This document shows positions 9,277-53,544 of a stretch of DNA of 64,000 nucleotides, piece after piece (position 1 is the stretch's first letter; the number at the start of each line of letters is the position of its first letter). A program made the translations under genes and the position numbers. Source of the stretch: Gammaproteobacteria bacterium. Lineage in GTDB: Bacteria; Pseudomonadota; Gammaproteobacteria; JBCCGL01. A model generated the notes under the pieces. That model was not told the origin of the DNA and made no database searches. It saw only the letters and a program-made list of their open reading frames with translations. The stretch is from NCBI GenBank assembly GCA_965277715.1, contig OZ255836.1, positions 1,568,001 to 1,632,000 on the forward strand. Direction: 5' to 3'.

Positions 9277-10197
9277 ATGAATAGCCCCTACATTGGCCGC
9301 TTCGCCCCCTCACCCAGCGGCCCGTTGCACTTTGGTTCACTGGCGACGGCAATGGGCAGCTACCTGCAGGCGCGCAGTCAAAATGGTCAATGGCTGCTGC
9401 GTATCGAGGACATCGACCCACCACGTGAAGTCAGTGGTGCAGGCGACGCCATCATTCGCAGCCTGGAAAATTTGGGGTTTGAGTGGGATCAATCGATCAC
9501 CTGGCAACACAACAACCTCAAACGCTACGAAGAGGCGCTGCAACAACTACAGACACAAGGCTTATTATTCGCCTGCGCCTGTAGCCGCAAACAACTGGCC
9601 AATACTGCCGCTTCCGACTCACACCTCCGCCCATACCCTCGCCCATACCCTCCTGGCCCATACCCTGGCACCTGTCGGGCGCGATCACTGAGCTTTACTG
9701 AGCGCAGCATCCGCATTCGCGTACAGGGCGACATCCACTTCCACGATGCAATTCAAGGCCATGTAAGCGAATCACTGGCCGAGCAGATAGGTGATTTCAT
9801 CGTCAAACGGCGCGATGGCTTATTCGCCTACCAGCTCGCTGTCGTCATCGACGACGCCGACCAGGGCATCACCGAAGTCGTGCGCGGGGCAGACCTACTG
9901 GACAACACAGCGCGGCAAATATTTCTGCAACGCGCACTTAACGCCCCTACCCCAGACTACTGCCACCTCCCCATAGCCCTCGACAAAAACGGCAAAAAAC
10001 TCTGCAAACACACACACGCAGAACCGATAGACACCCTGCCCCCCCTAGACGCCCTGCTATCCGCCTGGCACTTTCTCGGCCAAACCAGCGACACCTCGAA
10101 CAGCCATCGGCAAACACCCGATTCAGTTAAAGATTTTTGGCCCTGGGCCATCGCCAACTGGTCACTCACTAACGTACCCCTTGTACACAAGCAATAA
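9277..10197 (+). CDS. gluQ: tRNA glutamyl-Q(34) synthetase
   Basis: YIGRFAPSPSGPLHFGSL, LRIEDIDPPRE, YQLAVVIDD..QGITEVVRGADLL; no anticodon-binding domain; directly follows dksA. Confidence 0.95.
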   Translation: MNSPYIGRFAPSPSGPLHFGSLATAMGSYLQARSQNGQWLLRIEDIDPPREVSGAGDAIIRSLENLGFEWDQSITWQHNNLKRYEEALQQLQTQGLLFACACSRKQLANTAASDSHLRPYPRPYPPGPYPGTCRARSLSFTERSIRIRVQGDIHFHDAIQGHVSESLAEQIGDFIVKRRDGLFAYQLAVVIDDADQGITEVVRGADLLDNTARQIFLQRALNAPTPDYCHLPIALDKNGKKLCKHTHAEPIDTLPPLDALLSAWHFLGQTSDTSNSHRQTPDSVKDFWPWAIANWSLTNVPLVHKQ

Positions 10198-10352
10198 CCA
10201 ACCTTCCACAGAAACAGTTGGCGTGCGACTGTATGGATACAGGAGATAGAGCAACCCAGGGTGATAGAAACCACCTCATTAAAACGAACACCCCCTAACA
10301 ACTACCAACTGTCACTTGCTAATCCCCCAATTTTAACTAACCTACAACAACC

Positions 10353-10925
10353 ATGAAAAACCTCACAAACCACCTCAAAGCGCTACAAAGCCCCCCCTAC
10401 CTACTTTACTGCATTCTGCTACTCAGCCCACCGGCCATCGCTGAAGAAACACCTGCCCCAGACAGTGCCTATGACTGCACAGTAGTACAGATTGACAACA
10501 TCGATGAATCGACACTCACCAAAACCGAGCGCATTGCACTAATGGAACAGGCATTACTCGACTCAATCGATCAATACGACAGTTGCATCGACACGGCTAT
10601 CAGCAAAAACGCCGCCACAGGTGGCGGTGGCAGAGGTGAAGACGGAGGTGAAAGTGGTGAAGGCAAAGGTGAGAATGAAAGCGAAGGTAAAAGTGAAGGC
10701 GAGAATAATCAAGAAACCGGCGATGAAGGTAATGAAGACAACCAGAGCGCAGAAAACAACCACACCGAATCGGGTACAAGCGGCGCTAAAAATGAAGAAA
10801 TCGACCCAAAGGACAACGATGCCGCCGTGTGCATCATGCTAAAAGACGAGTTGAAAATAGAAACAGACCCAGAAAAAAAACGCGAATTAAAAGAAATTTA
10901 TACCGACTATAATTGTCGTAACTGA
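10353..10925 (+). CDS. Exported hypothetical protein with G/E-rich low-complexity linker; first gene of the envelope cluster
   Basis: Signal-peptide-like N-terminus (..PPAIA-EE), four Cys in the mature part, acidic linker, helical C-terminus ETDPEKKRELKEIY. Confidence 0.7.
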   Translation: MKNLTNHLKALQSPPYLLYCILLLSPPAIAEETPAPDSAYDCTVVQIDNIDESTLTKTERIALMEQALLDSIDQYDSCIDTAISKNAATGGGGRGEDGGESGEGKGENESEGKSEGENNQETGDEGNEDNQSAENNHTESGTSGAKNEEIDPKDNDAAVCIMLKDELKIETDPEKKRELKEIYTDYNCRN

Positions 10926-11033
10926 ACCCAAATACCACATAACAAACACTGATACTGTACCCATTCTTGGTTTCACAGAAAAATACCTGTTTTTATCAAA
11001 AACAACACTTATCGTCAGCACAGGAACGACCCT

Positions 11034-12350
11034 ATGCATACGCAGTACAGCACAAAAACAAACGGCTGTTTAAAGACCAAAAGCGCATGGGATATTGTGC
11101 TCCTCTTCATCTGCCTGCTGAGCCTCTCAGGCTGTAAAGCTCTCAACATCATCGACTCCTCCCCCTCTGCCGAACCGGCAGTTGGCCCCATTGTCGGCCC
11201 AGGCTCGACCACAACCAACCCAGAGACAGGCAAAAAACCATACACCTACAACTCAGATATATACCTGGACGTAGTGATCCCCGTATTTGACCCCGGACTC
11301 CCCTTGAATGAACACGGCGATGTGGACTATCAGCAGGTCGGTGAGCAAGGCATCTGGCCCCAACTAAGGCGTGCGGAAGCCAACCGTTTCGCAGTCGAAA
11401 CCAAGCGGGCCATTGGCAATATCGGTGCTTTTGGTGCCGTTAGCGTGGTGCCTGACGCATCTGCCAGCGGCGATGTTTATGTACTGGGCCATATTGATCA
11501 TTCTGACAGCGAAACGATCAAACTCACCGTTAATGTCCTGGATAGCCAAAGCAAATCCTGGGGTAAAAAACAATTTGAACACCACGTCAGCCCCGGATTT
11601 TTCCGGGACAAAAACAACGCTGAAAAAGACCCGTACGAGCCTGTTTTCAACCACATAGCCGACTACCTTTACCAACTGTTAAAAACCAAATCTGAACAGG
11701 AAAAAGACACCATTAAAGCCGTTACCGAGCTACGCTACGCCCAGCTCTACGCACCCGAATTATTCGGCCAGCACCTCAGGCTCGATAAAACCTGGGATGG
11801 CAATTACTACTACACGCTGCTCAGCCTGCCGAGTGAAAACGATACCATGACCCGGCGAATAGCACCGCTTCGCCTGCAAGACCAACGCTTTATTGACCGC
11901 CTGCAAATTCATTACGAAGGCTTTAACGCCCGCTCCGATGAGAGCTATCGCGCCTGGCAAAAAGAAACCCTACCTAAAGTCGTCGCGTTTAAAGAAGTGC
12001 AAGCTGAGAAAAGTAAAAAAATAACCCTTGGCATACTCTCGGCAGTGGCTGCCGCTGTTCTGAGCAACAACTCAAATTCAACGGTGGGTAATATCGGCAC
12101 AACAATTGGGGCATTGGCCAGTGCTGTGCTAATCAGTGATGCGCTGGGTAAAAATGAAGAGCTCAAAGTACACAAAGTTTCTCTGGATGAAATGGGTGAG
12201 TCACTGGATATTGAATTAAGCCCTCAGGTCATCGCGCACAACGAACAGACCATCGAGCTGACCGGCACCGCCAACGAACAATACCAGCAATGGAGAAGCC
12301 ACTTACAAGCGATATACGCGCTTGAAAAAACACCCGACACACAACTCTAG
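11034..12350 (+). CDS. Putative lipoprotein of unknown function
   Basis: Hydrophobic stretch ending in lipobox LSGC; glycine-zipper-like hydrophobic hairpin near the C-terminus. Confidence 0.78.
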   Translation: MHTQYSTKTNGCLKTKSAWDIVLLFICLLSLSGCKALNIIDSSPSAEPAVGPIVGPGSTTTNPETGKKPYTYNSDIYLDVVIPVFDPGLPLNEHGDVDYQQVGEQGIWPQLRRAEANRFAVETKRAIGNIGAFGAVSVVPDASASGDVYVLGHIDHSDSETIKLTVNVLDSQSKSWGKKQFEHHVSPGFFRDKNNAEKDPYEPVFNHIADYLYQLLKTKSEQEKDTIKAVTELRYAQLYAPELFGQHLRLDKTWDGNYYYTLLSLPSENDTMTRRIAPLRLQDQRFIDRLQIHYEGFNARSDESYRAWQKETLPKVVAFKEVQAEKSKKITLGILSAVAAAVLSNNSNSTVGNIGTTIGALASAVLISDALGKNEELKVHKVSLDEMGESLDIELSPQVIAHNEQTIELTGTANEQYQQWRSHLQAIYALEKTPDTQL

Positions 12351-12359
12351 GACACCGGG

Positions 12360-13814
12360 TTGCTGGACCAACAAATAGAGCAGTCACGCGCCAGGCGTGC
12401 GGCCAGTTTACGCAAAGGATTGATCGCCTGCCTTGGGCTGCTGGGCGCAATTCTCCTCGCGTATAGCCTTGTCCATTTTATCGACACAAGGCCTGCCGCT
12501 GACCCTGCCGCCGACCCTGTCACCGACGTAGGGGTTACCCCGGCACCTCCCGCAGTAGAAAATGATACCGCAACAATCGATAATGAACCGCTCAATAGTG
12601 AGGCAGATAGAAAGCAATTTCAGCAGATGCTAAGTCAGTTTGAAGAGGCGCACGCGTCGCACTTGTCTGACCAGGATTTCTTAAACTGGCAGCCACATAC
12701 CGCCGCTGATCCGCTCGACATAAAAACACAGGCACTGGCTTTATTTGCAGCGGGCAGTTACACCCACGCCATCACAACACTCGAACAGGCCGACGATACG
12801 GCGATACGCCTGCACAACGAATGGCAGGCAGCCTATGAGGATAAACTCAACAGGGCGCAACACGCCTACGACAACGGCGAAATCAAACCCGCGCAATTGC
12901 ACCTGAACCAGGCGTTCAAAATAAAATCTTCAGAAGAACGTGGCCTGGCACTACAAAAAAAACTGACCAGCCACCCGCGTGTTGCAAAACTATTGCAACA
13001 ATTAAACGTGGCCAACGTTGAAAACAACCTGCATAAACAGGCCGGTATACTCGGCGAAATAGTCACCGTTGACCCCACCCGAACTGAGATGAAAAAAACC
13101 CTGCAAGGCGTAAGAAAAAAAATAAACGACGCCGCATTTAGCCGCTACCTTGCCCAGGGGTTATCAGCCATTGACAGCGGCCAGATAAACGATGCCCGTA
13201 CCGCGTATCGACACGCCAAAAATATCTACGCCAAGCGCCCCGAATTAAATACCTTGCAACAGAAAATCACAGACAAAAAAACAGCAAACGAATTCAACCA
13301 CCTTATTCGACAACTGGCCGAGGCAGCCCAATCGGATAACTGGGCATCGGTTGCCGGTATTGCACAATCACCTTACCAGACTGACCCACAGGTACAGGCG
13401 TATTTAAACGATGCCGCCCATATACTCCGTTTGCAGAAACAGGCAAACCACTACCTCGATAGACCAGAGAGGCTACTGGATAAAAACATCCGTACACAGG
13501 CCAAAAAATTCATAAAAGAACACTTTCGCTCGACACTAAAAAGCCCACAGTTTGCCAAACAAATAAACGCACTGAGTGAAACCATCAGAAATGCCGAAAT
13601 TGAACAACCCCTACGCATTACCTCAAACGGGGAGACCGACATATGGGTACTGGGTGTTGGGCACGTGGGGGAAACCACGCAAAAAGACATCGTACTACCA
13701 CCGGGCCGTTATACCCTGGAAGGACGTTGTGACGGCTATCGACATAAACAGCTAACCGTTGCCCTGCCGGGGCAACACAGCATCCACTTGGTATGTGATG
13801 AACGAATTAGATAA
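12360..13814 (+). CDS. Membrane-anchored helical (TPR-like) protein with a C-terminal PEGA-like beta domain
   Basis: Single N-terminal TM, Pro/Ala linker, long helical repeats, C-terminal LRITSNGETDIWV.GVG.VG...LPPGRYTLEG.C.GY. Confidence 0.72.
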   Translation: MLDQQIEQSRARRAASLRKGLIACLGLLGAILLAYSLVHFIDTRPAADPAADPVTDVGVTPAPPAVENDTATIDNEPLNSEADRKQFQQMLSQFEEAHASHLSDQDFLNWQPHTAADPLDIKTQALALFAAGSYTHAITTLEQADDTAIRLHNEWQAAYEDKLNRAQHAYDNGEIKPAQLHLNQAFKIKSSEERGLALQKKLTSHPRVAKLLQQLNVANVENNLHKQAGILGEIVTVDPTRTEMKKTLQGVRKKINDAAFSRYLAQGLSAIDSGQINDARTAYRHAKNIYAKRPELNTLQQKITDKKTANEFNHLIRQLAEAAQSDNWASVAGIAQSPYQTDPQVQAYLNDAAHILRLQKQANHYLDRPERLLDKNIRTQAKKFIKEHFRSTLKSPQFAKQINALSETIRNAEIEQPLRITSNGETDIWVLGVGHVGETTQKDIVLPPGRYTLEGRCDGYRHKQLTVALPGQHSIHLVCDERIR

Positions 13815-15816
13815 AACCATACAACAGGCCAGAAAAAAACACTTTTTACAGACCCTCATCATCGGTGGCTTATTGCTTATTGGTTTGCTGGGGTATGCAT
13901 TCTGGTTGTTTGTAGCCAAGGGCTATGTACTGACGATAATGCCTGAAGAGGCAAAAGCCAGCCATTTTGTCACCCTGCAGAAAGGCCAGGGGCTCTACCT
14001 TGGCGGTGTACTGTACACCCTCTCAGGCCAAACCCGTTTTGAAGTTGGCGCAGCGGGCTTTGAATCTGAAACTGTCGATATCAATGCAAGCACCGATAGC
14101 ACCCTTGCTATCACCTTACAGCCAAGCCCCGGAGTTTTATTTGGCCGCACCATCCCCAGCGCCACCGATACCGAATGGACGATAAACGGCACCTTAGTGC
14201 ATATAGGTGAAACCCTGGAACACCCCATGGAGCCCGGCGAACACACGATTGCGATTAATCATAAATACCACCAACCGTTAAACAATACCGTTTCCATAAA
14301 ACGCGGCGAAAAAATACAAAAAGAATGGCCATTACAGACGATCGATGGCCAGTTACTCATACAGGCATCCCCCGTCACTGCTGAGGTTTATATTGACGAA
14401 ACACCCGTTGGCGCCACGCCGCTAAGCCTTGAACGACCAGCGGGTCGCTACGCCATCAAAGTCGCCGCCAAAGGTTACGAGACAATCGATGAAAACATCG
14501 AAATAAACAATGAAAATACCCGTATTACGCGCCAATACCAATTGGCACCCCGCAAAGGCACTGTATCGTTTACGCTCTCCCCGGCGGGGGGTGTATTGAT
14601 TGTCGATGGCGTGGCAATCAAACCCTCCGCAACCAACACCAGCGGGCAGACCCCAGTAACCGTTCAGGCGCCTATTATCGCCAACAAAAAACACACCGTT
14701 CGCTACAGCAAACCAGGCTACTCAAACCACACCAGCACAGTCAGCGTTTCACCGGGTGAGAATAAAGCCGTTTCAATTGCCCTTAAAAAGCAATGGGGGA
14801 CACTCAAAATCACCACATCACCGGCAGCCACCGTTTTAATTGACGGCAAACCGGCAGGCCAGTCACCCCTGACAACAAAACTGTCCACAGTGAAACACAA
14901 ACTGGAATTTGTTTTACCCGGCTATCGCACCCACACCCAATACATCACGCCACGCAATAATACCGTCGAAAAAATCGACGTGGCCCTGCTGACCGAATTT
15001 GCCGCTCGACAAAAAGCGGGCAAGCCCCTGTATGTATCGACCCTTGGCATCGACCTGTTGCAACTCAGGCCCCATGCCTTCCAGATGGGTTCCCCGCCCA
15101 ATGAAAAAGGCCGGAGCCGTAATGAGTTTCAAATTGATGTCGATTTCTCCCGCAAAATCTGGGTGAGTCGACACGAAATCACCGAGGCCCAATACGCCGC
15201 CTTCGATGCATCCAAAGCCACCTCCACACTACCCGTCACCGATATTTCATGGTCTGAGGCCGCTCAATACTGCAATTGGTTAAGCCAGCGGGAAGGCCTA
15301 CCCGTGTTTTACACAATCAATGCGAGGCGCATACTGGGCTTTAACCCACAGGCCAAAGGTTATCGCTTATTGACTGAGGCGGAATGGGAATGGCTTGCCA
15401 AAAAAGCCAAACGGTCGACACCCACCACATACGTATGGGGCAATAGCGGGCGTATTCCCAAAAATGCGGGCAATTTTGCCGACAGGACACTGGGCAAAAA
15501 AACAACCTTTTACTTTAAAAAATACACCGACGGCTTTGCTGGCAAAGCACCTGTTGGCAGCTTTAAAGCCGATAGAGTAGGCTTATACGATTTGGCGGGG
15601 AATGTGAGTGAGTGGGTGCATGATAAACACACCAACACACCCCCCGAAATACCGGGCGTCGCTATCGACTACACAGGGGCGGTAAGAGGCAGTGGCCATA
15701 TAGTGAAAGGGGGAAACTACCTCAGTGGCAGGCCGGCCGAACTGCGTGGCGCCTATCGGGCGACCAACAAAAGCCGCGACCCGACCATTGGTTTTAGAAT
15801 TGCCCGGTATCATTGA
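13798..15816 (+). CDS. Membrane-anchored PEGA-repeat protein with a C-terminal SUMF1/FGE-sulfatase-like domain
   Basis: TM, several PEGA repeats (AEVYIDETPVGATPL; ATVLIDGKPAGQSPL), then FQMGS, HEITEAQY, PVTDISWSEAAQYCNWLS, YRLLTEAEWE, GLYDLAGNVSEW, IGFRIAR. Start placed at ATG 13798 (MNELDK), overlapping the upstream stop. Confidence 0.88.
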   Translation: MNELDKTIQQARKKHFLQTLIIGGLLLIGLLGYAFWLFVAKGYVLTIMPEEAKASHFVTLQKGQGLYLGGVLYTLSGQTRFEVGAAGFESETVDINASTDSTLAITLQPSPGVLFGRTIPSATDTEWTINGTLVHIGETLEHPMEPGEHTIAINHKYHQPLNNTVSIKRGEKIQKEWPLQTIDGQLLIQASPVTAEVYIDETPVGATPLSLERPAGRYAIKVAAKGYETIDENIEINNENTRITRQYQLAPRKGTVSFTLSPAGGVLIVDGVAIKPSATNTSGQTPVTVQAPIIANKKHTVRYSKPGYSNHTSTVSVSPGENKAVSIALKKQWGTLKITTSPAATVLIDGKPAGQSPLTTKLSTVKHKLEFVLPGYRTHTQYITPRNNTVEKIDVALLTEFAARQKAGKPLYVSTLGIDLLQLRPHAFQMGSPPNEKGRSRNEFQIDVDFSRKIWVSRHEITEAQYAAFDASKATSTLPVTDISWSEAAQYCNWLSQREGLPVFYTINARRILGFNPQAKGYRLLTEAEWEWLAKKAKRSTPTTYVWGNSGRIPKNAGNFADRTLGKKTTFYFKKYTDGFAGKAPVGSFKADRVGLYDLAGNVSEWVHDKHTNTPPEIPGVAIDYTGAVRGSGHIVKGGNYLSGRPAELRGAYRATNKSRDPTIGFRIARYH

Positions 15817-15903
15817 GAGTGAACACCCCCTGGCCCCTCTTTCATAAAGAGAAGATTAGGGGGTATCTAAATTTATTTACGGCAAATCACAACAGGAACA
15901 ACC

Positions 15904-16029
15904 ATGAAAAAACCGCACACGATGAAAATTATCTTAATTACCCTGCTACTGATTGCCGGTGGTTCGGCAGCACTGGCCGCAGTAAAAATCAGCCTGGACA
16001 CCCCCGCCCGGCTCCCTATTGATATTTGA
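15904..16029 (+). CDS. 41-aa exported micro-protein
   Basis: MKKPHTMKIILITLLLIAGGSAALAAVKISLDTPARLPIDI*. AGGA RBS upstream; the stop lies 1 nt before the next ATG; signal peptide with an ALA-A site. Below the ORF-track length cutoff. Confidence 0.7.
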   Translation: MKKPHTMKIILITLLLIAGGSAALAAVKISLDTPARLPIDI

Positions 16030-16030
16030 T

Positions 16031-16852
16031 ATGAAAAACAATAGCCATGACGGAATGAACCCACACTGGATTGTCTCCGGCATTGTTCTGATCGTTTGCT
16101 TCACCCTTGTGCACCTGCTCTTTGAAGGCATTGTACGACCAAGCGCAGAAACCGTGCTCAACGGTAGCGGCACCACCGCCATGCTGAATGTGTTTGTCAT
16201 TTTAAAAGACACCGAACAGCAACTTTGCCTCTCAGCCATGTTGTATTGTCTGTTTTTAATCGCCTATAAATTGTTTGCCCTGGTCGGTGAAGAAGATTTT
16301 TACACGCGTGACTTTTTACACGGTGTTTTTACCGATGACAGCCCCAGTGACGGAGCACCCGACGAGGCAGCCGACGAAAATAACAATAAAAAATTTAATA
16401 TCGATATTGCCCTAAACACCCTGCAAAACAGCAAATATAAAGACAACTCGGCCATTGCCACCTGGATCAACTGCCTCCAGCGGTATAAAAATACCCACAA
16501 CGTTCAGCACGCCTCAGACGCCATCGTCTCCAGTGTTGAGGCGCTGGCTATGCAACTGGAGTCGGGCAACAATATGATTCGCTACATTATCTGGGCAATT
16601 CCCTCTATTGGTTTTGTCGGCACCGTTAGAGGCATCGGTCAGGCGCTGGCAAAGGCCGACGAAGCACTGGCTGGCAATATCGCCGGGATGACCTCAAGCC
16701 TGGGGGTCGCCTTTAATTCAACTTTTGTGGCGCTATTGATTAGCTTATTGTTGATGTTTTTACTGCATATACTGCAAAGCCGCCAGGATCAAATGGTAAT
16801 CAACACACAGCGCAGTTGTGAAAAAAACTTACTTTCACATTTACACCAGTAA
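16031..16852 (+). CDS. MotA/TolQ/ExbB proton-channel family protein
   Basis: WAIPSIGFVGTVRGI and LGVAFNSTFVAL helices carrying the conserved Pro/Gly/Thr residues of the family. Confidence 0.9.
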   Translation: MKNNSHDGMNPHWIVSGIVLIVCFTLVHLLFEGIVRPSAETVLNGSGTTAMLNVFVILKDTEQQLCLSAMLYCLFLIAYKLFALVGEEDFYTRDFLHGVFTDDSPSDGAPDEAADENNNKKFNIDIALNTLQNSKYKDNSAIATWINCLQRYKNTHNVQHASDAIVSSVEALAMQLESGNNMIRYIIWAIPSIGFVGTVRGIGQALAKADEALAGNIAGMTSSLGVAFNSTFVALLISLLLMFLLHILQSRQDQMVINTQRSCEKNLLSHLHQ

Positions 16853-16857
16853 CTTGC

Positions 16858-17928
16858 ATGTTCAAACGGCGCGCTCCCGACGGTTTTAATCTGGCGTTTC
16901 TGGATGTCATGGCCTGTGGTCTTGGGGCAATAATTCTCATTTTAATGTTGGTCAAATTCAACGCGCCCACAACAACCCCTAGCGACGCACTGGAAACGTT
17001 ACAACAAGAACTCAACGCCTTGCAGGATCAACAAACAGCGCAGCAGGCAGATATCGATGCGGTCAATAAAAAAATTGCCACAGCAACCACTGCCAGTAAA
17101 CAGATACAACAGAATCTCCAGCAATTAAAAATTCAACAGGACGCCACTCAACGCGCTGTCAACGATAAAAAAGCCATATTGGCAAAAGTCGAAAAATCCG
17201 TTGCGGCCGCCGCGCCCAGACAGGCGGAAGACCCGATCAAACTACAAGGCGCAGGGGAGGAAAACTACTTATTAGGCCTCAAGGTGGAAGGTCGGCACAT
17301 CGGTATACTTATCGATGCCAGTGCCTCGATGACCAATGAAAAACTGATCGATATTATTAAAAGCAAAATTTCCAGTGACGCAAAAAAAAAATCATCACCA
17401 AAATGGCAGCGCACCAAAAGAGTGGCTAAATGGTTATTGGCCAGAGTGCCACAACAGTCAAACGTTACTATGGTTAGTTTTAACAAAACCGCCAATCAGA
17501 TCGGGCCTCGCCGCGTTGTCCCCGCAACCAGTCGTCTGGGTATGAAACAACTGGCCGCAAGTATTGACCAACTGATACCGCACAATGGCACCAACCTGCA
17601 AGGTGCACTGACAGAAATAAAAAAACTCAGCCCGGATATGACACACCTTTACATCGTCACCGATGGTCTGCCAACACTCGGCGAAAATGCAAAAACCATC
17701 AGTTCGCTGGCACGCTGCGCATTGTTTTTCAGCAAATCTAAAACCATTACCGGGGAGTGCCGCCTGAGCCTGTTTGTGTATACCGTAAAACAGGCCAACA
17801 TGAGCGGTGTTCAGGTAAATGTTATCCTGTTGCCTCTGGAAGGTGACCCGCAGGCACCCCAGGCCTATTGGGAGTGGACGGCATCAACAGGCGGGTTGAT
17901 GATCAGCCCGGCGGATTCCTGGCCATGA
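16858..17928 (+). CDS. ExbD-like TM + coiled coil + vWA domain protein
   Basis: N-terminal TM NLAFLDVMACGLGA with Asp, coiled coil, MIDAS DASAS...GTN...VTDG. Confidence 0.85.
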   Translation: MFKRRAPDGFNLAFLDVMACGLGAIILILMLVKFNAPTTTPSDALETLQQELNALQDQQTAQQADIDAVNKKIATATTASKQIQQNLQQLKIQQDATQRAVNDKKAILAKVEKSVAAAAPRQAEDPIKLQGAGEENYLLGLKVEGRHIGILIDASASMTNEKLIDIIKSKISSDAKKKSSPKWQRTKRVAKWLLARVPQQSNVTMVSFNKTANQIGPRRVVPATSRLGMKQLAASIDQLIPHNGTNLQGALTEIKKLSPDMTHLYIVTDGLPTLGENAKTISSLARCALFFSKSKTITGECRLSLFVYTVKQANMSGVQVNVILLPLEGDPQAPQAYWEWTASTGGLMISPADSWP

Positions 17929-18866
17929 AAAGGCAGCGCGCTCCCCTGGAAGTCTTTAATATCGCTTTTTTGGATATTATTAGCTGCGCCTTTGGGGCTA
18001 TTGTCCTCTTAGTGCTACTGGCAAAAAATGACACGGAGGGGACATTTTTTGATGTGGCGCAGATAAGCGAGCTGATTCAGGCCGTCACCGCCGCCGAAAG
18101 CGAGCTGGATCAACAGCGCGCATCCCTGGCAAACAAGCGACAACAGCTCCGGCAAATACACCGGGCCTCAGCCAGCAATGCAACACAAAAAGACGCGTTG
18201 GAGAGTGACATTGCCGCCGCCAAAAACCGTGTGCAGCAACTGACCTCAACTGCCGACGGTTTAAGCCGAATCGTCACCTCGCGGCAACGCGCCGCCACCC
18301 GACAAGGCACGGCAACCGAGCGCGACGAAGAGGTCGGTGGTATTCCCGTCGACAGCGAATACGTGATTTTTATCATCGATACATCGGGCAGTATGAAGCG
18401 CATCTGGGGCGAGGTACTGGACACCATGAGTGATATTCTCGATAACCACCCCAAGGTCAAAGGTTTTCAGGTAATGAGTGATATGGGGGAATACCTATTA
18501 TCCACCTCGGCAGGTAAATGGCGCAAAGACACCCGCAAAAGCCGAAAAGCCATCTTATCCGCCATGCAGCGATGGCACACCCACAGCAATAGCAGCCCGG
18601 TTGAAGGCCTCGAGGTGGCATTAAAAACCTACGCAAAAAAGACCACCAGTTTATCTATCTATATCCTGGGTGATGAATACTCCGGTGGCTCTTACGACCC
18701 TGTTATCAATACCCTGAATACACTCAACACCCACCCTAAAACAGGAGAACGCCTCGCCCGCGTACACGCCATTGGTTTTGTCTCTGGCGCCCGGACCCTT
18801 AAATACTCAACCTTGATGCGTGAAGTCACCCGGCAAAACCGGGGGACTTTTTTGGCGTTGCCTTAA
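17925..18866 (+). CDS. Second ExbD-like TM + coiled coil + vWA domain protein
   Basis: ATGA overlap with the previous gene; TM NIAFLDIISCAFGA, coiled coil, IIDTSGSM...ILGDE. Confidence 0.85.
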   Translation: MKRQRAPLEVFNIAFLDIISCAFGAIVLLVLLAKNDTEGTFFDVAQISELIQAVTAAESELDQQRASLANKRQQLRQIHRASASNATQKDALESDIAAAKNRVQQLTSTADGLSRIVTSRQRAATRQGTATERDEEVGGIPVDSEYVIFIIDTSGSMKRIWGEVLDTMSDILDNHPKVKGFQVMSDMGEYLLSTSAGKWRKDTRKSRKAILSAMQRWHTHSNSSPVEGLEVALKTYAKKTTSLSIYILGDEYSGGSYDPVINTLNTLNTHPKTGERLARVHAIGFVSGARTLKYSTLMREVTRQNRGTFLALP

Positions 18867-18967
18867 AAATAAAGTGCGACGGACACGACGCGATGCGATG
18901 TGGTAATAGGGAGTGTCTGAAAGATGGTGTATTGTTAAATAACTGTAGCAACCCAAGACATCAACTT

Positions 18968-19057
18968 CTCTAACAAACGGCTCAACTGGGGGGCGAGTGT
19001 AGCCACTGCTCTGTTTCTGATACATTGTGCCCCGTACCCGTTAGCCGAACGTCAGGT
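18968..19057 (+). other. attC-like integron cassette recombination site (degenerate)
   Basis: CTCTAAC-AAACG-GCTCAAC...GTTAGC-CGAAC-GTCAGGT: R and L boxes, 5-nt spacers, extra C in the left L box, inner stem GGGGC..GTGTA / TACAT..GCCCC; 90 bp. Confidence 0.65.
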
Positions 19058-19224
19058 AATTAACTAAAATACAGGTAGAGAGTAATAAAATGAAATCCGA
19101 ATCTACCGCTATTATCGAATCTGCTCCACAAGGGGGGTATTGGGCAATCTGCCCCCCTGTGTGTCAACCTCACCTCAAGCCACTATGATTTAAGTTAACA
19201 TCTAAATCAGGGCAGCTATCGAGA

Positions 19225-19647
19225 GTGAGAACAATGCCAAAACCAATGTTAGATAAACCACAACCTGAGTCATGTGAGATCAAGCCTGATCGGACACTTG
19301 AGAAAAAGACTCGCCGCACTTTTACAGCAGCCTATAAGCTAAAGATGATCAATCAAGCTGATGCTTGCCAGCATGGACAGCTTGGCGCTTTGCTACGCCG
19401 TGAGAAGCTTTACTCCAATCAATTGTCTCAGTGGCGAAGAGAACTGGCCGAAGGCGGTTTGTCAGGGCTATCAAAAAGCGCGCCCGGCCCTGCACCGCAA
19501 ATGACGTCTGAGCAGCGCCGGATAGCGCAGCTTGAAAAACAAGTAAACCGTCTGGAAAAACAAATCGCCCTTAAGGATGACTGTCTGGAACTCCAAAAAA
19601 AAGCCTTGGCGATGCTCGACCGATTGAACAGCGGGATCGAGCAGTGA
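19225..19647 (+). CDS. IS transposase OrfA (HTH)
   Basis: RRTFTAAYKLK...GALLRREKLYSNQLSQWRR followed by a coiled coil. Confidence 0.88.
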   Translation: MRTMPKPMLDKPQPESCEIKPDRTLEKKTRRTFTAAYKLKMINQADACQHGQLGALLRREKLYSNQLSQWRRELAEGGLSGLSKSAPGPAPQMTSEQRRIAQLEKQVNRLEKQIALKDDCLELQKKALAMLDRLNSGIEQ

Positions 19648-20723
19648 ATACCGCGTTGACTGACCGCCCACCCTCAGTGTCCCAACGTCTGGCTTGTAAG
19701 GTATTGGCATTGTCACGGTCACACGTCCGGGCCAAGCAAAGCCGCCGCCATTTCTGTGGCCCTCCCAAACCAGCAGGAACCGTGCGAATCACTTGCCATC
19801 AGCCACGCCAACTGAGTGAAGAAGAATGCTCTGTGGTATTGAATACGCTCAATAGTGAAGCGTTCTATGATCAACCACCGGCGCAGGTTTACCATACCTT
19901 GCTGAGTCGCCGTATTTACCTCTGCTCCATCAGCACCATGCACCGCCTGCTGCGTCAGTCCGATCAGTCGGGGGAACGCCGAAAACAGCGTCCTGGGCAA
20001 ACCAACGCAGTGCCAAGGCTTTCGGCCAGTCAGCCTAATGAGGTCTGGACATGGGATATTACAAAATTGGCCACCGTTAAGCGCGGCGTTTATTTATCGC
20101 TCTATGTGGTGATGGATTTATTCAGTCGCTACATCGTGGCCTGGATGCTTTCCCATAAAGAAAACAGTGCACTGGCACAGCAGCTCATTCAGGAGGCCAG
20201 TACACGTTACGCGATTAGACCCGACCAGCTGACGCTGCATCAGGATCGAGGGGCACCGATGACCGCACATTGCTACCTTGACTTACTGGGCGAGTTGGCG
20301 GTCACCGCTAGCCACAGCAGACCCCGCGTGAGTAATGACAATCCTCATAGTGAAAGCCAATTTCGAACACTGAAGTATCAGCCTGACTACCCGCGTCGCT
20401 TTGATAGCTATAGCCATGCCAATGGATGGTGCACTGAGTATATTGATTGGTATAACCATCAGCACTGTCACAGTGCGTTGGAGGGCTTCACACCTTGTCA
20501 GGTGTTTACTGGGCAGTACATACCACTCAGTGAGGTTCGTCAGCAGGCACTCAATGAAAAGTATGTCCAACATGCAGAGCGATTTGTCAATCAGCGGCCT
20601 GTTGTCAGGATGCCGCCTGCGAAGGTCTACATTAATCCCGTGCGCGATGAACTGGGTAATATAGATCACGATGCACCCGTCAACTTCCCAACACTAAATC
20701 GGGCTAAATATATGGTAACTTGA
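19644..20723 (+). CDS. IS transposase OrfB (DDE/rve integrase core)
   Basis: PNEVWTWDIT, YVVMDLFSRYIVAW, LHQDRG, SNDNPHSESQFRTLKY, WYNHQH.HS; GTGA overlap with orfA. Confidence 0.92.
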   Translation: MNTALTDRPPSVSQRLACKVLALSRSHVRAKQSRRHFCGPPKPAGTVRITCHQPRQLSEEECSVVLNTLNSEAFYDQPPAQVYHTLLSRRIYLCSISTMHRLLRQSDQSGERRKQRPGQTNAVPRLSASQPNEVWTWDITKLATVKRGVYLSLYVVMDLFSRYIVAWMLSHKENSALAQQLIQEASTRYAIRPDQLTLHQDRGAPMTAHCYLDLLGELAVTASHSRPRVSNDNPHSESQFRTLKYQPDYPRRFDSYSHANGWCTEYIDWYNHQHCHSALEGFTPCQVFTGQYIPLSEVRQQALNEKYVQHAERFVNQRPVVRMPPAKVYINPVRDELGNIDHDAPVNFPTLNRAKYMVT

Positions 20724-20910
20724 GTAACTGTGGCTTGAAACAGGTTGACACCTTCCGCCCCGAGATACCTGGCGCAAATGGTCAGGGGGAAGGAATAGAG
20801 GAAGCGAAGCAAAGCTTAAGAAAGGCTATTGAGCTAATCCTGGAAGATCGAAGGGAAGACTTCTTTCGAGGGTTACCCGAAGACGCTATACAGGACAAGG
20901 TCATCACGGC

Positions 20911-25091: not shown

Positions 25092-26519
25092 ATGTCTGAT
25101 TTAAACGTGCTCTTTCTCTTCAGCGATGAACACCAGCGGGATGCGCTCGGTTGCTACGGTCACCCACTTGTCCAGACACCCCACCTGGATGCACTCGCCA
25201 GGCGTGGCACCCGCTTCAGTAACGCCTACACACCCTCCCCCGTTTGCGTACCGGCACGCGCCTCGCTGGCAAGCGGTGAATACGTGCACACCACCCGCTG
25301 TTGGGGTAATGCACAAGCCTACCAGGGCGAGCCTCAAAGCTGGGGGCACAAGCTACAGGCCCAGGGTCACCGCGTCGATGCCATAGGCAAACTCCATTAC
25401 CGGGGCAAGGAATACAACAATGGTTTTGATGAGGAAATACTGCCGTTGTATATCCGCAACGGGCAAGGCTGGATAAAAGGCCTGCTACGCGATCACGAAG
25501 CAGTTATCGACTGCTCCCATTACGCCACGCAAATCGGCCCTGGCGATGACAGCTACACCGACTACGACCTCGGCGTTACCCGTGCCGCCTGCGACTGGCT
25601 GAAGAATAAAAATAACACGGGTAGCGGCAAACCCTGGGCCTTGTTTGTATCCTGGCTACGCCCCCACTACCCGCTGACTTGCCCCCCGGCGTTTTACAAT
25701 TTATACCCCCAGGAGACGATGGACAGCGCACGCTTTACCGATATACAACAACACGCACAACACCCGGTACTCCAGGCCATTCGCAAAAATTTTAACTACG
25801 ACAACTACTTTACCGAAAGCACCCGCCAAATCGCCCGCGCCTCATACTACGGACTGTGCAGCTTCCTCGATGCACAGATAGGTCAGGTCATTGCCGCGCT
25901 CAAGGCCAGCGGCCAACTGGACAATACATTAATCATTTATACCAGTGACCACGGTGATCACAATGGCGACCGCAGCCTGTGGACAAAGATGACCCTATAC
26001 GATGAATCAGCGGCGATACCTCTGATTATTGCCGGGCAGGGCATCCCCCAGGGAAAAGTCACCGCGACACTGGCTTCACTGATCGACATTTACCCCAGTA
26101 TTTTATCCGCCACCGGCGCTGAAGATGATGGCAAAGACCGCCCCGGCATTGCCTTGCAAACCCTCGCTGGGCAGCCGGATTTTGACCGCGCCATCCTCAG
26201 CGAATACCACGACGGCGGCTCCCCCACCGGGATGTTTATGCTGCGCAATGCGCGCTGGAAATACAACTACTACCCCGGTTATGCACCGGCTTTATACGAC
26301 ATGCACTATGACCCGGACGAATTGACCGACCTCGGTGAATCTGACATCCACACCGACATTCGCACACAGTGTCACGCACAAATGTTGACGCTGGTCGATC
26401 CAGAGGCTGCTAACAAACGGGCATTTGCCGACCAGGCCGCCCGCATTGAATCACTTGGTGGTATTCAAGCGGTGTTAAATTCCGGTGAATTTGATTTCAC
26501 GCCAGTTGAGACTGATTAA
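25092..26519 (+). CDS. Formylglycine-dependent sulfatase (choline-sulfatase-like)
   Basis: NVLFLFSDEH, catalytic CVPAR, GKLH, PHYP, YTSDHGD. Confidence 0.9.
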   Translation: MSDLNVLFLFSDEHQRDALGCYGHPLVQTPHLDALARRGTRFSNAYTPSPVCVPARASLASGEYVHTTRCWGNAQAYQGEPQSWGHKLQAQGHRVDAIGKLHYRGKEYNNGFDEEILPLYIRNGQGWIKGLLRDHEAVIDCSHYATQIGPGDDSYTDYDLGVTRAACDWLKNKNNTGSGKPWALFVSWLRPHYPLTCPPAFYNLYPQETMDSARFTDIQQHAQHPVLQAIRKNFNYDNYFTESTRQIARASYYGLCSFLDAQIGQVIAALKASGQLDNTLIIYTSDHGDHNGDRSLWTKMTLYDESAAIPLIIAGQGIPQGKVTATLASLIDIYPSILSATGAEDDGKDRPGIALQTLAGQPDFDRAILSEYHDGGSPTGMFMLRNARWKYNYYPGYAPALYDMHYDPDELTDLGESDIHTDIRTQCHAQMLTLVDPEAANKRAFADQAARIESLGGIQAVLNSGEFDFTPVETD

Positions 26520-52275: not shown

Positions 52276-53544
52276 TCAAACTGTATCGGTGACGACAATA
52301 CTATTACCGATTAAGCTGTCTAACATACTTGATTGATGTTCACTGGTGCCAACCACAATATCAGGCCTTGTTTTTAACGTAATTAACAGATCAGCATTGG
52401 TTTGTGCCGCCGTTAATTGGGCTGTAGCCGTTGTATCCGCCGCACCCGCCGAAATGCCCGCATTTGTCCCGCCGGTGCCATTGTGATCAATGTAAAGGTT
52501 AACGCCTGCATCATTGATGTCAATATAAATATAATCAGCAAGGTTACCAATATCCAGGTTCACACCACTTACGTCGATGGTGTTTTGATTTTCTCCCTCC
52601 AACAGATCTACCAGGTTCAATACATCCTGCCTATCCCGATTATCTTCAGTGGCGTCAAAACGGCGAAAATCCATGACAATGTCTGTATCTCTACTATCTG
52701 CATCTGCTGTGCCGTGGTTATCAATACCCCATACCTCTGTAAAAGGTAGTAACAATCCAGGTTCTTCAATCGTTCCAGATGAACCTGAACTTATTATTTT
52801 TTCAAAATGCGAAATAGTCTGTTCCAAAACAGGTGACGGTGAAATCATTATTGCCGGTGTCACTGGTAATGCCCCTGCCCCTGTTAAAGTCGTCGTATAA
52901 ATCAGGCCAATAGGTGTTCCCACACCCTCACCGATATAAACAGTGACCTCTTGCGGTTTACTGCCTAAACCATCCGTTGGTGCCACCAGAAAGGTATCCA
53001 CCCCCGTAAAAGACGGGTTCGGTTGATAGGTAAACGTACCGTTGGGGTTGAGTTCAACCGTACCGTGACTTGCATCACCGACCAAATCATAGGCAATGGG
53101 ATCGCCCTCTGGATCGATTGCAAATAAACCCGATTCTATCAGTACCCCCTGTTCTGTAGCATACTCATAGCTTGCCAAAACCGGCACATCATTAGTGCCT
53201 GCATCATCAACTGGATTGACCCATATATTGACAACTTTTTTTATAACGTTACCACTACCATCATCAGCCGTAATAACAAAACTATCTGACCCTGCAAAAT
53301 CCTTACCGGGTTCATAGCTGAAGGTACCGTCTGCATTGATTGTCACTCTACCTTGTCCGCTACCAACAGCCAAACCGTAGACAACACCCTCAATCTCACC
53401 AGAATTAACACTGCTTTCCAGCAGGCTGTCTTCTGTAGTAGAAAACGCCAATACGGCTGGAGACGCGGCATTGCCGCCTATTTCCTGTATGGTTTGATTA
53501 TCACTTTCAACGCCATTATCTTTTAGCACTTGATTAGTAAACAC
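52276..53544 (-). CDS. 422-aa short paralog of the giant adhesin: two Ig/cadherin-like domains plus a T1SS C-terminal-like domain
   Basis: N-terminal ~115 aa and C-terminal ~150 aa align by eye with the two ends of the 8395-aa protein; GTG start 7 nt after AGGAG. Confidence 0.85.
   Translation of the reverse strand: MFTNQVLKDNGVESDNQTIQEIGGNAASPAVLAFSTTEDSLLESSVNSGEIEGVVYGLAVGSGQGRVTINADGTFSYEPGKDFAGSDSFVITADDGSGNVIKKVVNIWVNPVDDAGTNDVPVLASYEYATEQGVLIESGLFAIDPEGDPIAYDLVGDASHGTVELNPNGTFTYQPNPSFTGVDTFLVAPTDGLGSKPQEVTVYIGEGVGTPIGLIYTTTLTGAGALPVTPAIMISPSPVLEQTISHFEKIISSGSSGTIEEPGLLLPFTEVWGIDNHGTADADSRDTDIVMDFRRFDATEDNRDRQDVLNLVDLLEGENQNTIDVSGVNLDIGNLADYIYIDINDAGVNLYIDHNGTGGTNAGISAGAADTTATAQLTAAQTNADLLITLKTRPDIVVGTSEHQSSMLDSLIGNSIVVTDTV

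Follow-up and report, generated by a model that had tools for sequence, protein, structure and literature searches.

An eight-gene cassette of marine gammaproteobacteria as a candidate ion-driven machine of the cell envelope

The question raised by this locus is whether a compact series of genes for exported and membrane proteins, among them a relative of the MotA/TolQ/ExbB channels, encodes a single machine of the cell envelope and, if so, what such a machine would drive. The locus lies in a stretch of 64,000 nucleotides (hereafter the window) from the genome of a gammaproteobacterium (GenBank assembly GCA_965277715.1, contig OZ255836.1, forward strand positions 1,568,001 to 1,632,000), in which eight plus-strand genes, designated g1 to g8, occupy positions 10353-18866. 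All are read in the same direction, abutting or overlapping, with junctions from g1 through g8 of +108, +9, -17, +87, +1, +5 and -4 nt, and all eight products (8/8) are exported or membrane-anchored. Such an arrangement had been described in an earlier note on this DNA, and the junctions and coding frames bear it out. We lean, with modest confidence, towards the reading that g1-g8 encode one cell-envelope machine built around an ion-driven "5:2" motor of the MotA/TolQ/ExbB type. Its parts would be a channel subunit (g6), two paralogous proteins with vWA domains (g7 or vWA1, and g8 or vWA2), a protein combining PEGA repeats with the fold of the formylglycine-generating enzyme (FGE) (g4), a TPR protein (g3), a lipoprotein (g2), an acidic secreted protein (g1) and an exported micro-peptide (g5).

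Conservation and distribution of the cassette

The case for a single functional unit begins with the co-occurrence of its genes. A scan of one genome per species provided 80 loci with a relative of vWA1, which were searched by tblastn with the window proteins. Both vWA1 and vWA2 were found in all 80, the channel in 77, the PEGA/FGE protein in 72, the lipoprotein and the TPR protein in 71 each, and the acidic protein in 53. Loci that lack the upstream cassette genes are short contigs; gene order is identical in all 71 related loci of sufficient length, and this recurrence of the same order in every related locus long enough to hold it places the clustering far beyond chance. The pairing of the vWA genes is equally strict, vWA2 lying directly after vWA1 in 79 of the 80 loci, with the contig of the remaining one ending inside vWA2. 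When all open reading frames (ORFs) of at least 80 aa from the same loci were clustered, the acidic protein was recovered as the first cassette gene in 67 of 80, and the commonest flanking family occurred in 13 of 80, leaving aside two families of antisense shadow ORFs. Three genes from the surroundings of the cassette in the window (dksA, gluQ and aceE) were found beside it by tblastn in none of the 80 loci. Since no further conserved neighbour emerged from the clustering, the cassette is self-contained.

This organization extends to distant relatives. Twenty of the more distant places, at 29-39% identity, were scanned with custom hidden Markov models (HMMs): the vWA pair was present in all 20, with vWA2 directly after vWA1 in each, the channel, PEGA/FGE and TPR proteins in 18 apiece, the lipoprotein in 17, and the acidic protein, again as the first gene, in 16, several of the missing genes falling at the ends of loci or contigs. 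The earlier note had suggested that similar neighbourhoods recur in marine gammaproteobacteria and had proposed a search for co-occurrence across genomes. The suggestion proved sound: the search finds the order kept in the 71 loci long enough and recurring at this lower level of identity.

Carriers of the cassette include marine gammaproteobacteria, joined by beta- and alphaproteobacterial records; among them are the culturable marine genera Alteromonas, Idiomarina, Pseudoalteromonas, Glaciecola and Methylophaga. An even sample was taken from the class to which the genome of one of the loci (L003) belongs, and 399 of its genomes were scored, all but one; of these, 35 encode a vWA1 relative at E <= 1e-20, or about one in eleven, one of the 35 being flagged as unpublished. 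Grouped at 50% identity, the vWA1 family as a whole comprises 855 clusters at E <= 0.001, of which 199 reach E <= 1e-30; the best 150 of the 855 are mostly full-length, with approximately 350 residues. In a quick, unfinished tree of vWA1 the rows grouped largely by taxon, and the window was placed in a seven-row Endobugula/Cellvibrionaceae group (support 98) nested among Alteromonadaceae rows. Transfer of the cassette into the lineage of the window is therefore a possibility that sequence comparison raises, and a hint in the same direction comes from the lower G+C content of the cassette (0.48-0.52 over positions 10001-20000, versus 0.54-0.57 on both flanks), an adjacent insertion sequence (IS) element and the differing genomic positions of the cassette in relatives.

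Some divergent cassettes carry an additional gene for a protein of 307-464 aa that has no hydrophobic helix. It is found between the channel gene and vWA1 in six loci (L083, L086, L087, L091, L097 and L099) and between the PEGA/FGE gene and vWA1 in a seventh (L095). An FHA domain was detected at 5.2e-12 in one of the four copies scanned, the other three having no Pfam match; the additional gene is absent from the window.

The predicted motor core and its partner proteins

The assignment of g6 to the MotA/TolQ/ExbB family, already made in the earlier note, is upheld by a match to Pfam MotA_ExbB (PF01618) over residues 155-262, which scores 50.0 bits where 22.9 would suffice (E 3.2e-13), and hhalign places the last two helices of g6 on residues 136-213 of Escherichia coli TolQ (probability 70%, E 4.2e-5). 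Across 40 sequences the last two helices of g6 are almost invariant, and the motifs G-T-V-R-G (T190) and N-S-T (T223) within them are invariant. The first of these aligns with G-T-V-W-G of TolQ at its first Thr, and by analogy both T190 and T223 are predicted to line the pore. A cytoplasmic stretch of g6, encoded at about 16460-16520, contains the conserved pattern R-[FY]-x-x-T-x-[NS]-[VI], in which the Thr is almost invariant; R-[FY]-x-x-T occurs in 17 of 18 rows, from cassettes with and without an FHA gene alike, and the stretch might serve as a site of phosphorylation or partner binding.

The vWA proteins g7 and g8 share an N-terminus consisting of a basic stretch followed by F-N-x-A-F-L-D and a hydrophobic helix, and both match Pfam VWA_2 (g8 at 7e-4). 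For each paralogue, at least 90% of 80 orthologues retain the transmembrane (TM) Asp, which, judged by eye, corresponds to the Asp within L-L-D-V of E. coli TolR. D16, S155 and D269 are invariant, and D153, S157 and T245 nearly so, across 83 diverse vWA1 relatives; the pattern D-x-S-x-S...T...D of the metal-ion-dependent adhesion site (MIDAS) is conserved in g7, as are the F-L-D Asp, D-x-S-x-S and the corresponding metal-site residues in an alignment of 80 orthologues of g8. Both proteins contain vWA domains with an intact, predicted MIDAS. An AlphaFold2 model of g7, with a predicted local distance difference test score (pLDDT) of 87.6, places helices at residues 14-33 (TM) and 43-118, followed by a linker and a vWA domain at 147-356. 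A Foldseek search with this model returned 369 matches at E <= 0.001, and the matches listed are all vWA-domain proteins or complexes containing one. The vWA tips attributed to these proteins at the outset are evident in the family matches and, for g7, in the modelled fold, g8 having been judged by alignment. At the standard rise per residue, the 76-residue helix would be about 11 nm long.

A core of this kind has been predicted computationally (Mol Biol Evol 2025;42:msaf138; PMC12204202), as a tolQ-like gene together with a pair of "transpore-helix" (TPH) vWA proteins. As set out in the main text of that paper, TPH-vWA genes are tightly linked to tolQ homologues, without a tolR or exbD gene, occur mostly as heterologous pairs and encode an Asp of the ExbD/TolR type; an AlphaFold 3 model places TPH-vWA inside a TolQ-like pentamer, and the class, seeded from Idiomarina, is reported in Proteobacteria and Verrucomicrobia (PMC12204202). 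The g6-g8 genes of the window belong to this predicted class and show all of its defining features. They share its core, including Thr in the channel; Idiomarina relatives are among the matches of the window proteins, and Pfam and NCBIfam scans found no tolR, exbD or motB gene in the cassette. The main text of the paper assigns TPH-vWA motors no function and reports no experiment on them. Literature searches found no experimental work on the present gene set, and a 2025 mBio paper on the evolution of MotAB does not mention vWA. Beyond the published trio, the cassette contains five further conserved genes, the micro-peptide included, that do not appear in the main text of PMC12204202; that text names no PEGA, FGE or sulfatase and speaks of "tolQ-like motor genes only", though its figures and supplement may show more.

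Of these five, g4 has the most recognizable domains: three PEGA stretches (Pfam, 3.8e-37) and an FGE-sulfatase domain (1.5e-33), in keeping with its earlier description as a TM-PEGA-SUMF1 protein. Its N-terminal TM helix spans residues 21-39; it has no lipobox Cys, and its single Cys lies inside the FGE domain. Active FGEs need two cysteines (PMC5324649). Where a solved active FGE has the Cys of its active-site stretch, g4 has Ser in the alignment, and this replacement of the catalytic residue, with only one Cys in the whole protein, means that g4 cannot be an FGE. Solved FGEs, PvdO and PorK match the domain about equally well, at 5e-10 to 2e-7 (PorK chains at 1.7e-7). The best NCBIfam match is to PorK/GldK (TIGR03525, 2.9e-17), at 63.1 bits against a cut-off of 350, and g4 also falls below the cut-offs of the GldJ models in NCBIfam. 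The analogy with GldK and GldJ drawn in the earlier note is sustained as a resemblance of fold and no further, the PorK/GldK cut-off not being reached and the anchor being a TM helix, not a lipid. The neighbouring protein g3 has a hydrophobic helix at residues 20-38, and its family profile matches solved TPR proteins (for example at 1.7e-22), as the label of TM-TPR-like protein had anticipated; at its C-terminal end lies a domain that hhalign pairs with the last of the PEGA domains in g4 (probability 68%, E 4.8e-5).

The lipoprotein g2, named as such in the earlier note, has a lipobox in which Cys34 is invariant. It has no Pfam, NCBIfam or PDB relative by sequence, the PDB having been searched with a profile, and an atlas search with a homologue returned only its own family. 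An AlphaFold2 model (pLDDT 81.9, predicted template modelling score 0.78) shows an alpha/beta domain at approximately residues 70-265 together with a helix of 70 residues; a hydrophobic segment rich in Gly, Ala and Ser is poorly modelled. Foldseek returned nothing for this model at E <= 0.001. Comparison by VIA-align, which warns that Z below 8 may reflect a mere common arrangement, placed it nearest to a chain of the Vibrio-type LPHT flagellar ring (Z 9.0) and XCC0632 (Z 8.4), followed by PelC (Z 7.9, root-mean-square deviation 2.2 over 107 residues), a curli-complex chain (Z 7.5), the N-domain of TolB (Z 7.2), and PqiC and LptE (Z 5-6). As modelled, the alpha/beta domain resembles the LptE/PelC/TolB-N/FlgT-like fold that is common among outer-membrane lipoproteins, and g2 is probably located in the outer membrane. 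The acidic character earlier ascribed to the secreted protein g1 is confirmed by its composition (42 D+E versus 17 K+R). It is built from a conserved, Cys-bearing N-terminal module, a variable linker rich in Gly, Ser, Glu and Asp, and a conserved C-terminal module; two cysteines are near-invariant, and the protein matches no Pfam or NCBIfam family.

The micro-peptide g5, proposed in the earlier note, is a real gene. It has a signal-type N-terminus, and its conserved motif forms the very C-terminus of the protein, with the consensus I-S-x-[DN]-x-P-x-x-[FL]-P-x-D-I; the window copy ends in KISLDTPARLPIDI. The only invariant residues are P38 and I41, with L31 and P34 nearly so, and the stop codon lies 1 nt before the ATG of g6. 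Between the PEGA/FGE and channel genes, 69 of 71 loci contain an ORF of this type. Of the 20 divergent loci, 15 yielded it in a motif scan and one more (L081) in an HMM search, and there it is longer, at 70-90 residues, with an acidic linker and the same ending. At E <= 0.01 the family amounts to 490 database clusters; none has a name other than "hypothetical", and no Pfam family covers it. The longest ORF of the gap between g4 and g6 (15813-16022) was also considered as the peptide gene and was rejected, having relatives in 0 of 80 loci. The core of the window copy, L-D-T-P-A-R (L-[DN]-[ST]-P in the family), resembles C-x-P-x-R, the motif recognized by true FGEs, with Asp in place of Cys; its Arg is kept only in an Endobugula-like clade.

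Proposed mechanism and rival explanations

In the mechanism that we propose, g6 would form a pentameric channel, as suggested by its family features and by the published AlphaFold 3 model of homologues, and its pore would hold a heterodimer formed by the N-terminal helices of g7 and g8. The conserved Asp of each helix would load and release protons (or another ion) against Thr of g6, and the flow of ions would turn or pull the g7/g8 pair relative to the g6 ring. On each axle protein the periplasmic domain of ExbD, TolR or MotB is replaced by the helix of about 76 residues and a vWA head, an exchange which implies that force or movement would be delivered to whatever the heads bind. Their targets would be the periplasmic proteins of the cassette itself, the first candidate being the cysteine-less FGE-fold head of g4, held away from the inner membrane on its PEGA domains. 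The choice of g4 follows a precedent from the sensor of the H1 type VI secretion system (H1-T6SS) of Pseudomonas aeruginosa, in which TagR is a member of the FGE-sulfatase superfamily, the periplasmic domain of PpkA is a vWA domain (PMC3224232), and the FGE fold of TagR binds that vWA domain with the help of an outer-membrane lipoprotein, TagQ (PMC13713981, PMC3224232). With its TPR and PEGA-like regions, g3 could be a second scaffold anchored in the inner membrane; g2 would be the anchor in the outer membrane, and g1 and g5 would be ligands or adaptors. The output, which is the least certain step, would be a mechanical coupling of the inner to the outer membrane, comparable to that of Tol-Pal, and not the import of nutrients.

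The comparison with Tol-Pal draws on several shared parts: a TolQ-family channel, a partner helix bearing an Asp, an arm that spans the periplasm, an outer-membrane lipoprotein and a TPR protein, encoded in E. coli by one operon, together with the likeness of the g2 alpha/beta domain to the N-domain of TolB. In contrast to Tol-Pal, the cassette has no TolR periplasmic domain, TolA, TolB beta-propeller or OmpA-like domain of Pal, and its arm is part of the axle, with a vWA domain at the end. A bolder version of the scheme, which we regard as decidedly unlikely, would make this a third proton-powered trans-envelope coupler beside Ton and Tol. Two different integrin-like axle heads would grip a dead FGE domain, and proton flow would pull or probe the outer membrane by way of g2. 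The exported peptide of about 14 residues would act as the latch: because its core resembles the FGE motif with Cys replaced, g5 could occupy the former substrate groove in the manner of a pseudo-substrate, and its invariant C-terminal end would be offered to the metal site of a vWA head or to the TPR protein.

Several points weigh against our preferred interpretation. The earlier note had described g7 and g8 as single-TM proteins with an ExbD/TolR-like Asp. The TM helix and its conserved Asp stand, but ExbD (PF02472) matched neither the whole proteins nor, with E allowed up to 10, their N-terminal 51 residues, no TolR or MotB model matched, and comparison with E. coli TolR by hhalign was insignificant, the aligned region lying outside the helix; in the absence of any such model match the likeness comes down to a short motif. 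Neither phmmer nor a profile search returned a solved relative of g6, the best being MotA at E 0.78, and the lack of a significant solved MotA/ExbB/TolQ chain makes g6 a distant member of its family. The structural matches of g2 lie in a range (Z 7-9) where, by the warning of VIA-align, a common arrangement alone may be responsible. The binding partner of the vWA heads was chosen by analogy and is a guess, and the terms "trans-envelope" and "energy-transducing", like the roles in transport, secretion or motility suggested at the outset, are inferred. As to novelty, the motor core is already in print as a prediction (PMC12204202). Of the earlier proposal of an ion-driven machine of undescribed function, the ion-driven part thus agrees with the Pfam match, the invariant Thr residues and the TM Asp, and the claim that it is undescribed must be narrowed by the 2025 prediction of its core. 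Finally, a divergent locus in which only the channel and the vWA pair were found in a 13 kb stretch (L093) indicates that the accessory genes are not always adjacent.

That last locus is also the starting point for the notion that the eight genes are neighbours and not one machine, for example with the vWA pair and channel acting together and g1-g5 serving an unrelated envelope function. The published description, in its main text, covers only the trio (PMC12204202), and in another locus (L082) the channel gene lies after vWA2, the peptide gene still standing behind the PEGA/FGE gene. Yet a fixed order, with abutting or overlapping genes, is found across gammaproteobacterial orders and extends to betaproteobacterial records, and no other conserved neighbour accompanies the cassette; we therefore give separate functions only a small chance. 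The main rival, possible though in our estimate rather unlikely, is that the cassette encodes a sensor of envelope condition and not a transducer of force. The FGE head of g4, g2 and the vWA heads would detect disturbance of the outer membrane or periplasm, and the channel would gate or report this state, through phosphorylation-dependent signalling where an FHA protein is present. The P. aeruginosa H1-T6SS detects membrane damage with a sensor composed of these three kinds of part (PMC13713981, PMC3224232), divergent cassettes carry the cytoplasmic gene between channel and vWA1 that in one of four scanned copies encodes FHA, and the cytoplasmic R-[FY]-x-x-T of the channel is widely kept. The likeness to TagQ, TagR, PpkA and, in some cassettes, Fha1 (an outer-membrane lipoprotein, an FGE-superfamily protein, an inner-membrane vWA protein and FHA) is, however, one of shared domain types alone. 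The Pfam and NCBIfam scans revealed no kinase, FHA or other cytoplasmic output gene in the cassette of the window; its vWA proteins, unlike PpkA, carry a channel-plug helix and are accompanied by a MotA/TolQ-type channel, and a proton channel with a conserved Asp/Thr site would be an odd part for a pure sensor.

Two known motor systems suggest other uses. The cassette could be a proteobacterial counterpart of PorKLMN/GldKLMN, its motor driving an FGE-fold ring under the outer membrane for secretion or gliding. Common to both are a motor of the MotA superfamily paired with long periplasmic partners, dimeric in PorKLMN/GldKLMN, and an FGE-fold protein without FGE chemistry; PorK/GldK provides the best NCBIfam match of g4, solved PorK chains are among its matches, and the nearest fold to g2 is a chain from flagellar outer-ring assembly. 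Against this stand the scores of g4 far below the PorK/GldK and GldJ cut-offs, its TM anchor in place of a lipobox, and the finding that PorK scores no better than active FGEs and PvdO do. None of the eight proteins matched GldL, GldM, GldN or a translocon in NCBIfam, the axle is distinguished by its Asp-bearing helix and vWA heads, and clustering of the 80 loci disclosed no conserved cargo or adhesin gene with the cassette. We hold this counterpart to be improbable. Still less probable, and in our view very unlikely, is an anti-phage or conflict system of the Zorya type, in which a MotAB-like complex senses attack on the envelope. ZorAB likewise forms a 5:2 complex of the MotAB type that belongs to neither flagella nor Ton nor Tol, and the lower G+C content of the cassette, its distance of 309 nt from an IS3 element and its varying position between relatives would suit a mobile defence locus. 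The PADLOC matches to ZorA (E 0.002, 15.1 bits) and ZorB (E 0.0044, 14.6 bits) are weak and limited to short stretches of the shared channel helices or the coiled coil, and no other defence model matched. The cassette has neither a ZorC/D-type effector nor the long tail of ZorA, and the Pfam and NCBIfam scans found no nuclease, ATPase or other cytoplasmic effector. Unlike strain-variable defence islands it is kept in whole genera, with vWA1 grouping largely by taxon in the quick tree, and a plasmid collection contained no match to it.

Gene layout, genomic setting and significance

Coordinates and predicted features of the cassette genes (window positions)
Gene	Position	Strand	Product
g1	10353..10925	+	secreted acidic protein, signal peptide
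g2	11034..12350	+	lipoprotein, probably outer-membrane
g3	12360..13814	+	N-terminal TM anchor, linker, TPR region, C-terminal PEGA-like beta domain
g4	13798..15816	+	N-terminal TM anchor, PEGA repeats, C-terminal FGE-sulfatase-fold domain without catalytic cysteines
g5	15904..16029	+	41-codon exported micro-peptide
g6	16031..16852	+	four-helix MotA/TolQ/ExbB-family channel subunit
g7 (vWA1)	16858..17928	+	TM helix with Asp16, 76-residue helix, linker, vWA domain
g8 (vWA2)	17925..18866	+	g7 paralogue, same plan of TM-Asp, helix and vWA

For three genes the most likely start, as used in the table, differs from that of the longest ORF, which begins at 13759 for g4, at 16019 for g6 (the likely start being an ATG) and at 17868 for g8, whose likely start overlaps the g7 stop by 4 nt. 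A scan of 10100-19300 for promoters and terminators gave 10 and 13 sites, respectively, compared with 9.0 and 13.9 expected from shuffles, which gives no ground for assigning either. Upstream of the cassette lie an RND efflux pair, dksA and a GluQ-type tRNA synthetase, and downstream an IS3 element followed by aceE/aceF; as stated earlier for the adjacent genes, there is no TonB, TolA/TolB, receptor or flagellar gene near the cassette within the window. The IS3-family element (19175-20738), 309 nt past the cassette, has two overlapping transposase frames (HTH_Tnp_1 and rve) and inverted repeats of 30 nt at 19175-19204 and 20709-20738 that are 77% complementary. A sulfatase-family gene (25092-26519, plus strand; Pfam 5.8e-45) is found 6 kb downstream, a proximity not kept in other loci, and the cysteine-less FGE domain of g4 could not mature its product. 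Farther on, an ORF of 8395 aa on the minus strand (26821-52008) contains many Big_9 and cadherin-like repeats in its first 4900 residues, the part that was scanned, and is probably a giant adhesin; it is followed by a gene for a 422-aa protein with the same domain types (52276-53544, minus strand). The giant adhesin-like ORF is not kept beside the cassette in other loci.

Flagella, TonB-dependent uptake, envelope maintenance by Tol-Pal, gliding, type IX secretion and Zorya defence all run on ion-driven 5:2 motors, and each new set of partners has revealed a new use of the same engine. The cassette described here supplies such a set: a motor with two distinct vWA heads, a catalytically dead FGE head raised on PEGA domains, a scaffold with TPR repeats, a lipoprotein of outer-membrane type, an acidic secreted protein, and a conserved micro-peptide left unnamed by gene callers and family databases. 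As a complete and compact list of parts, present in culturable marine genera, it makes the function of the machine testable by genetics and structure.

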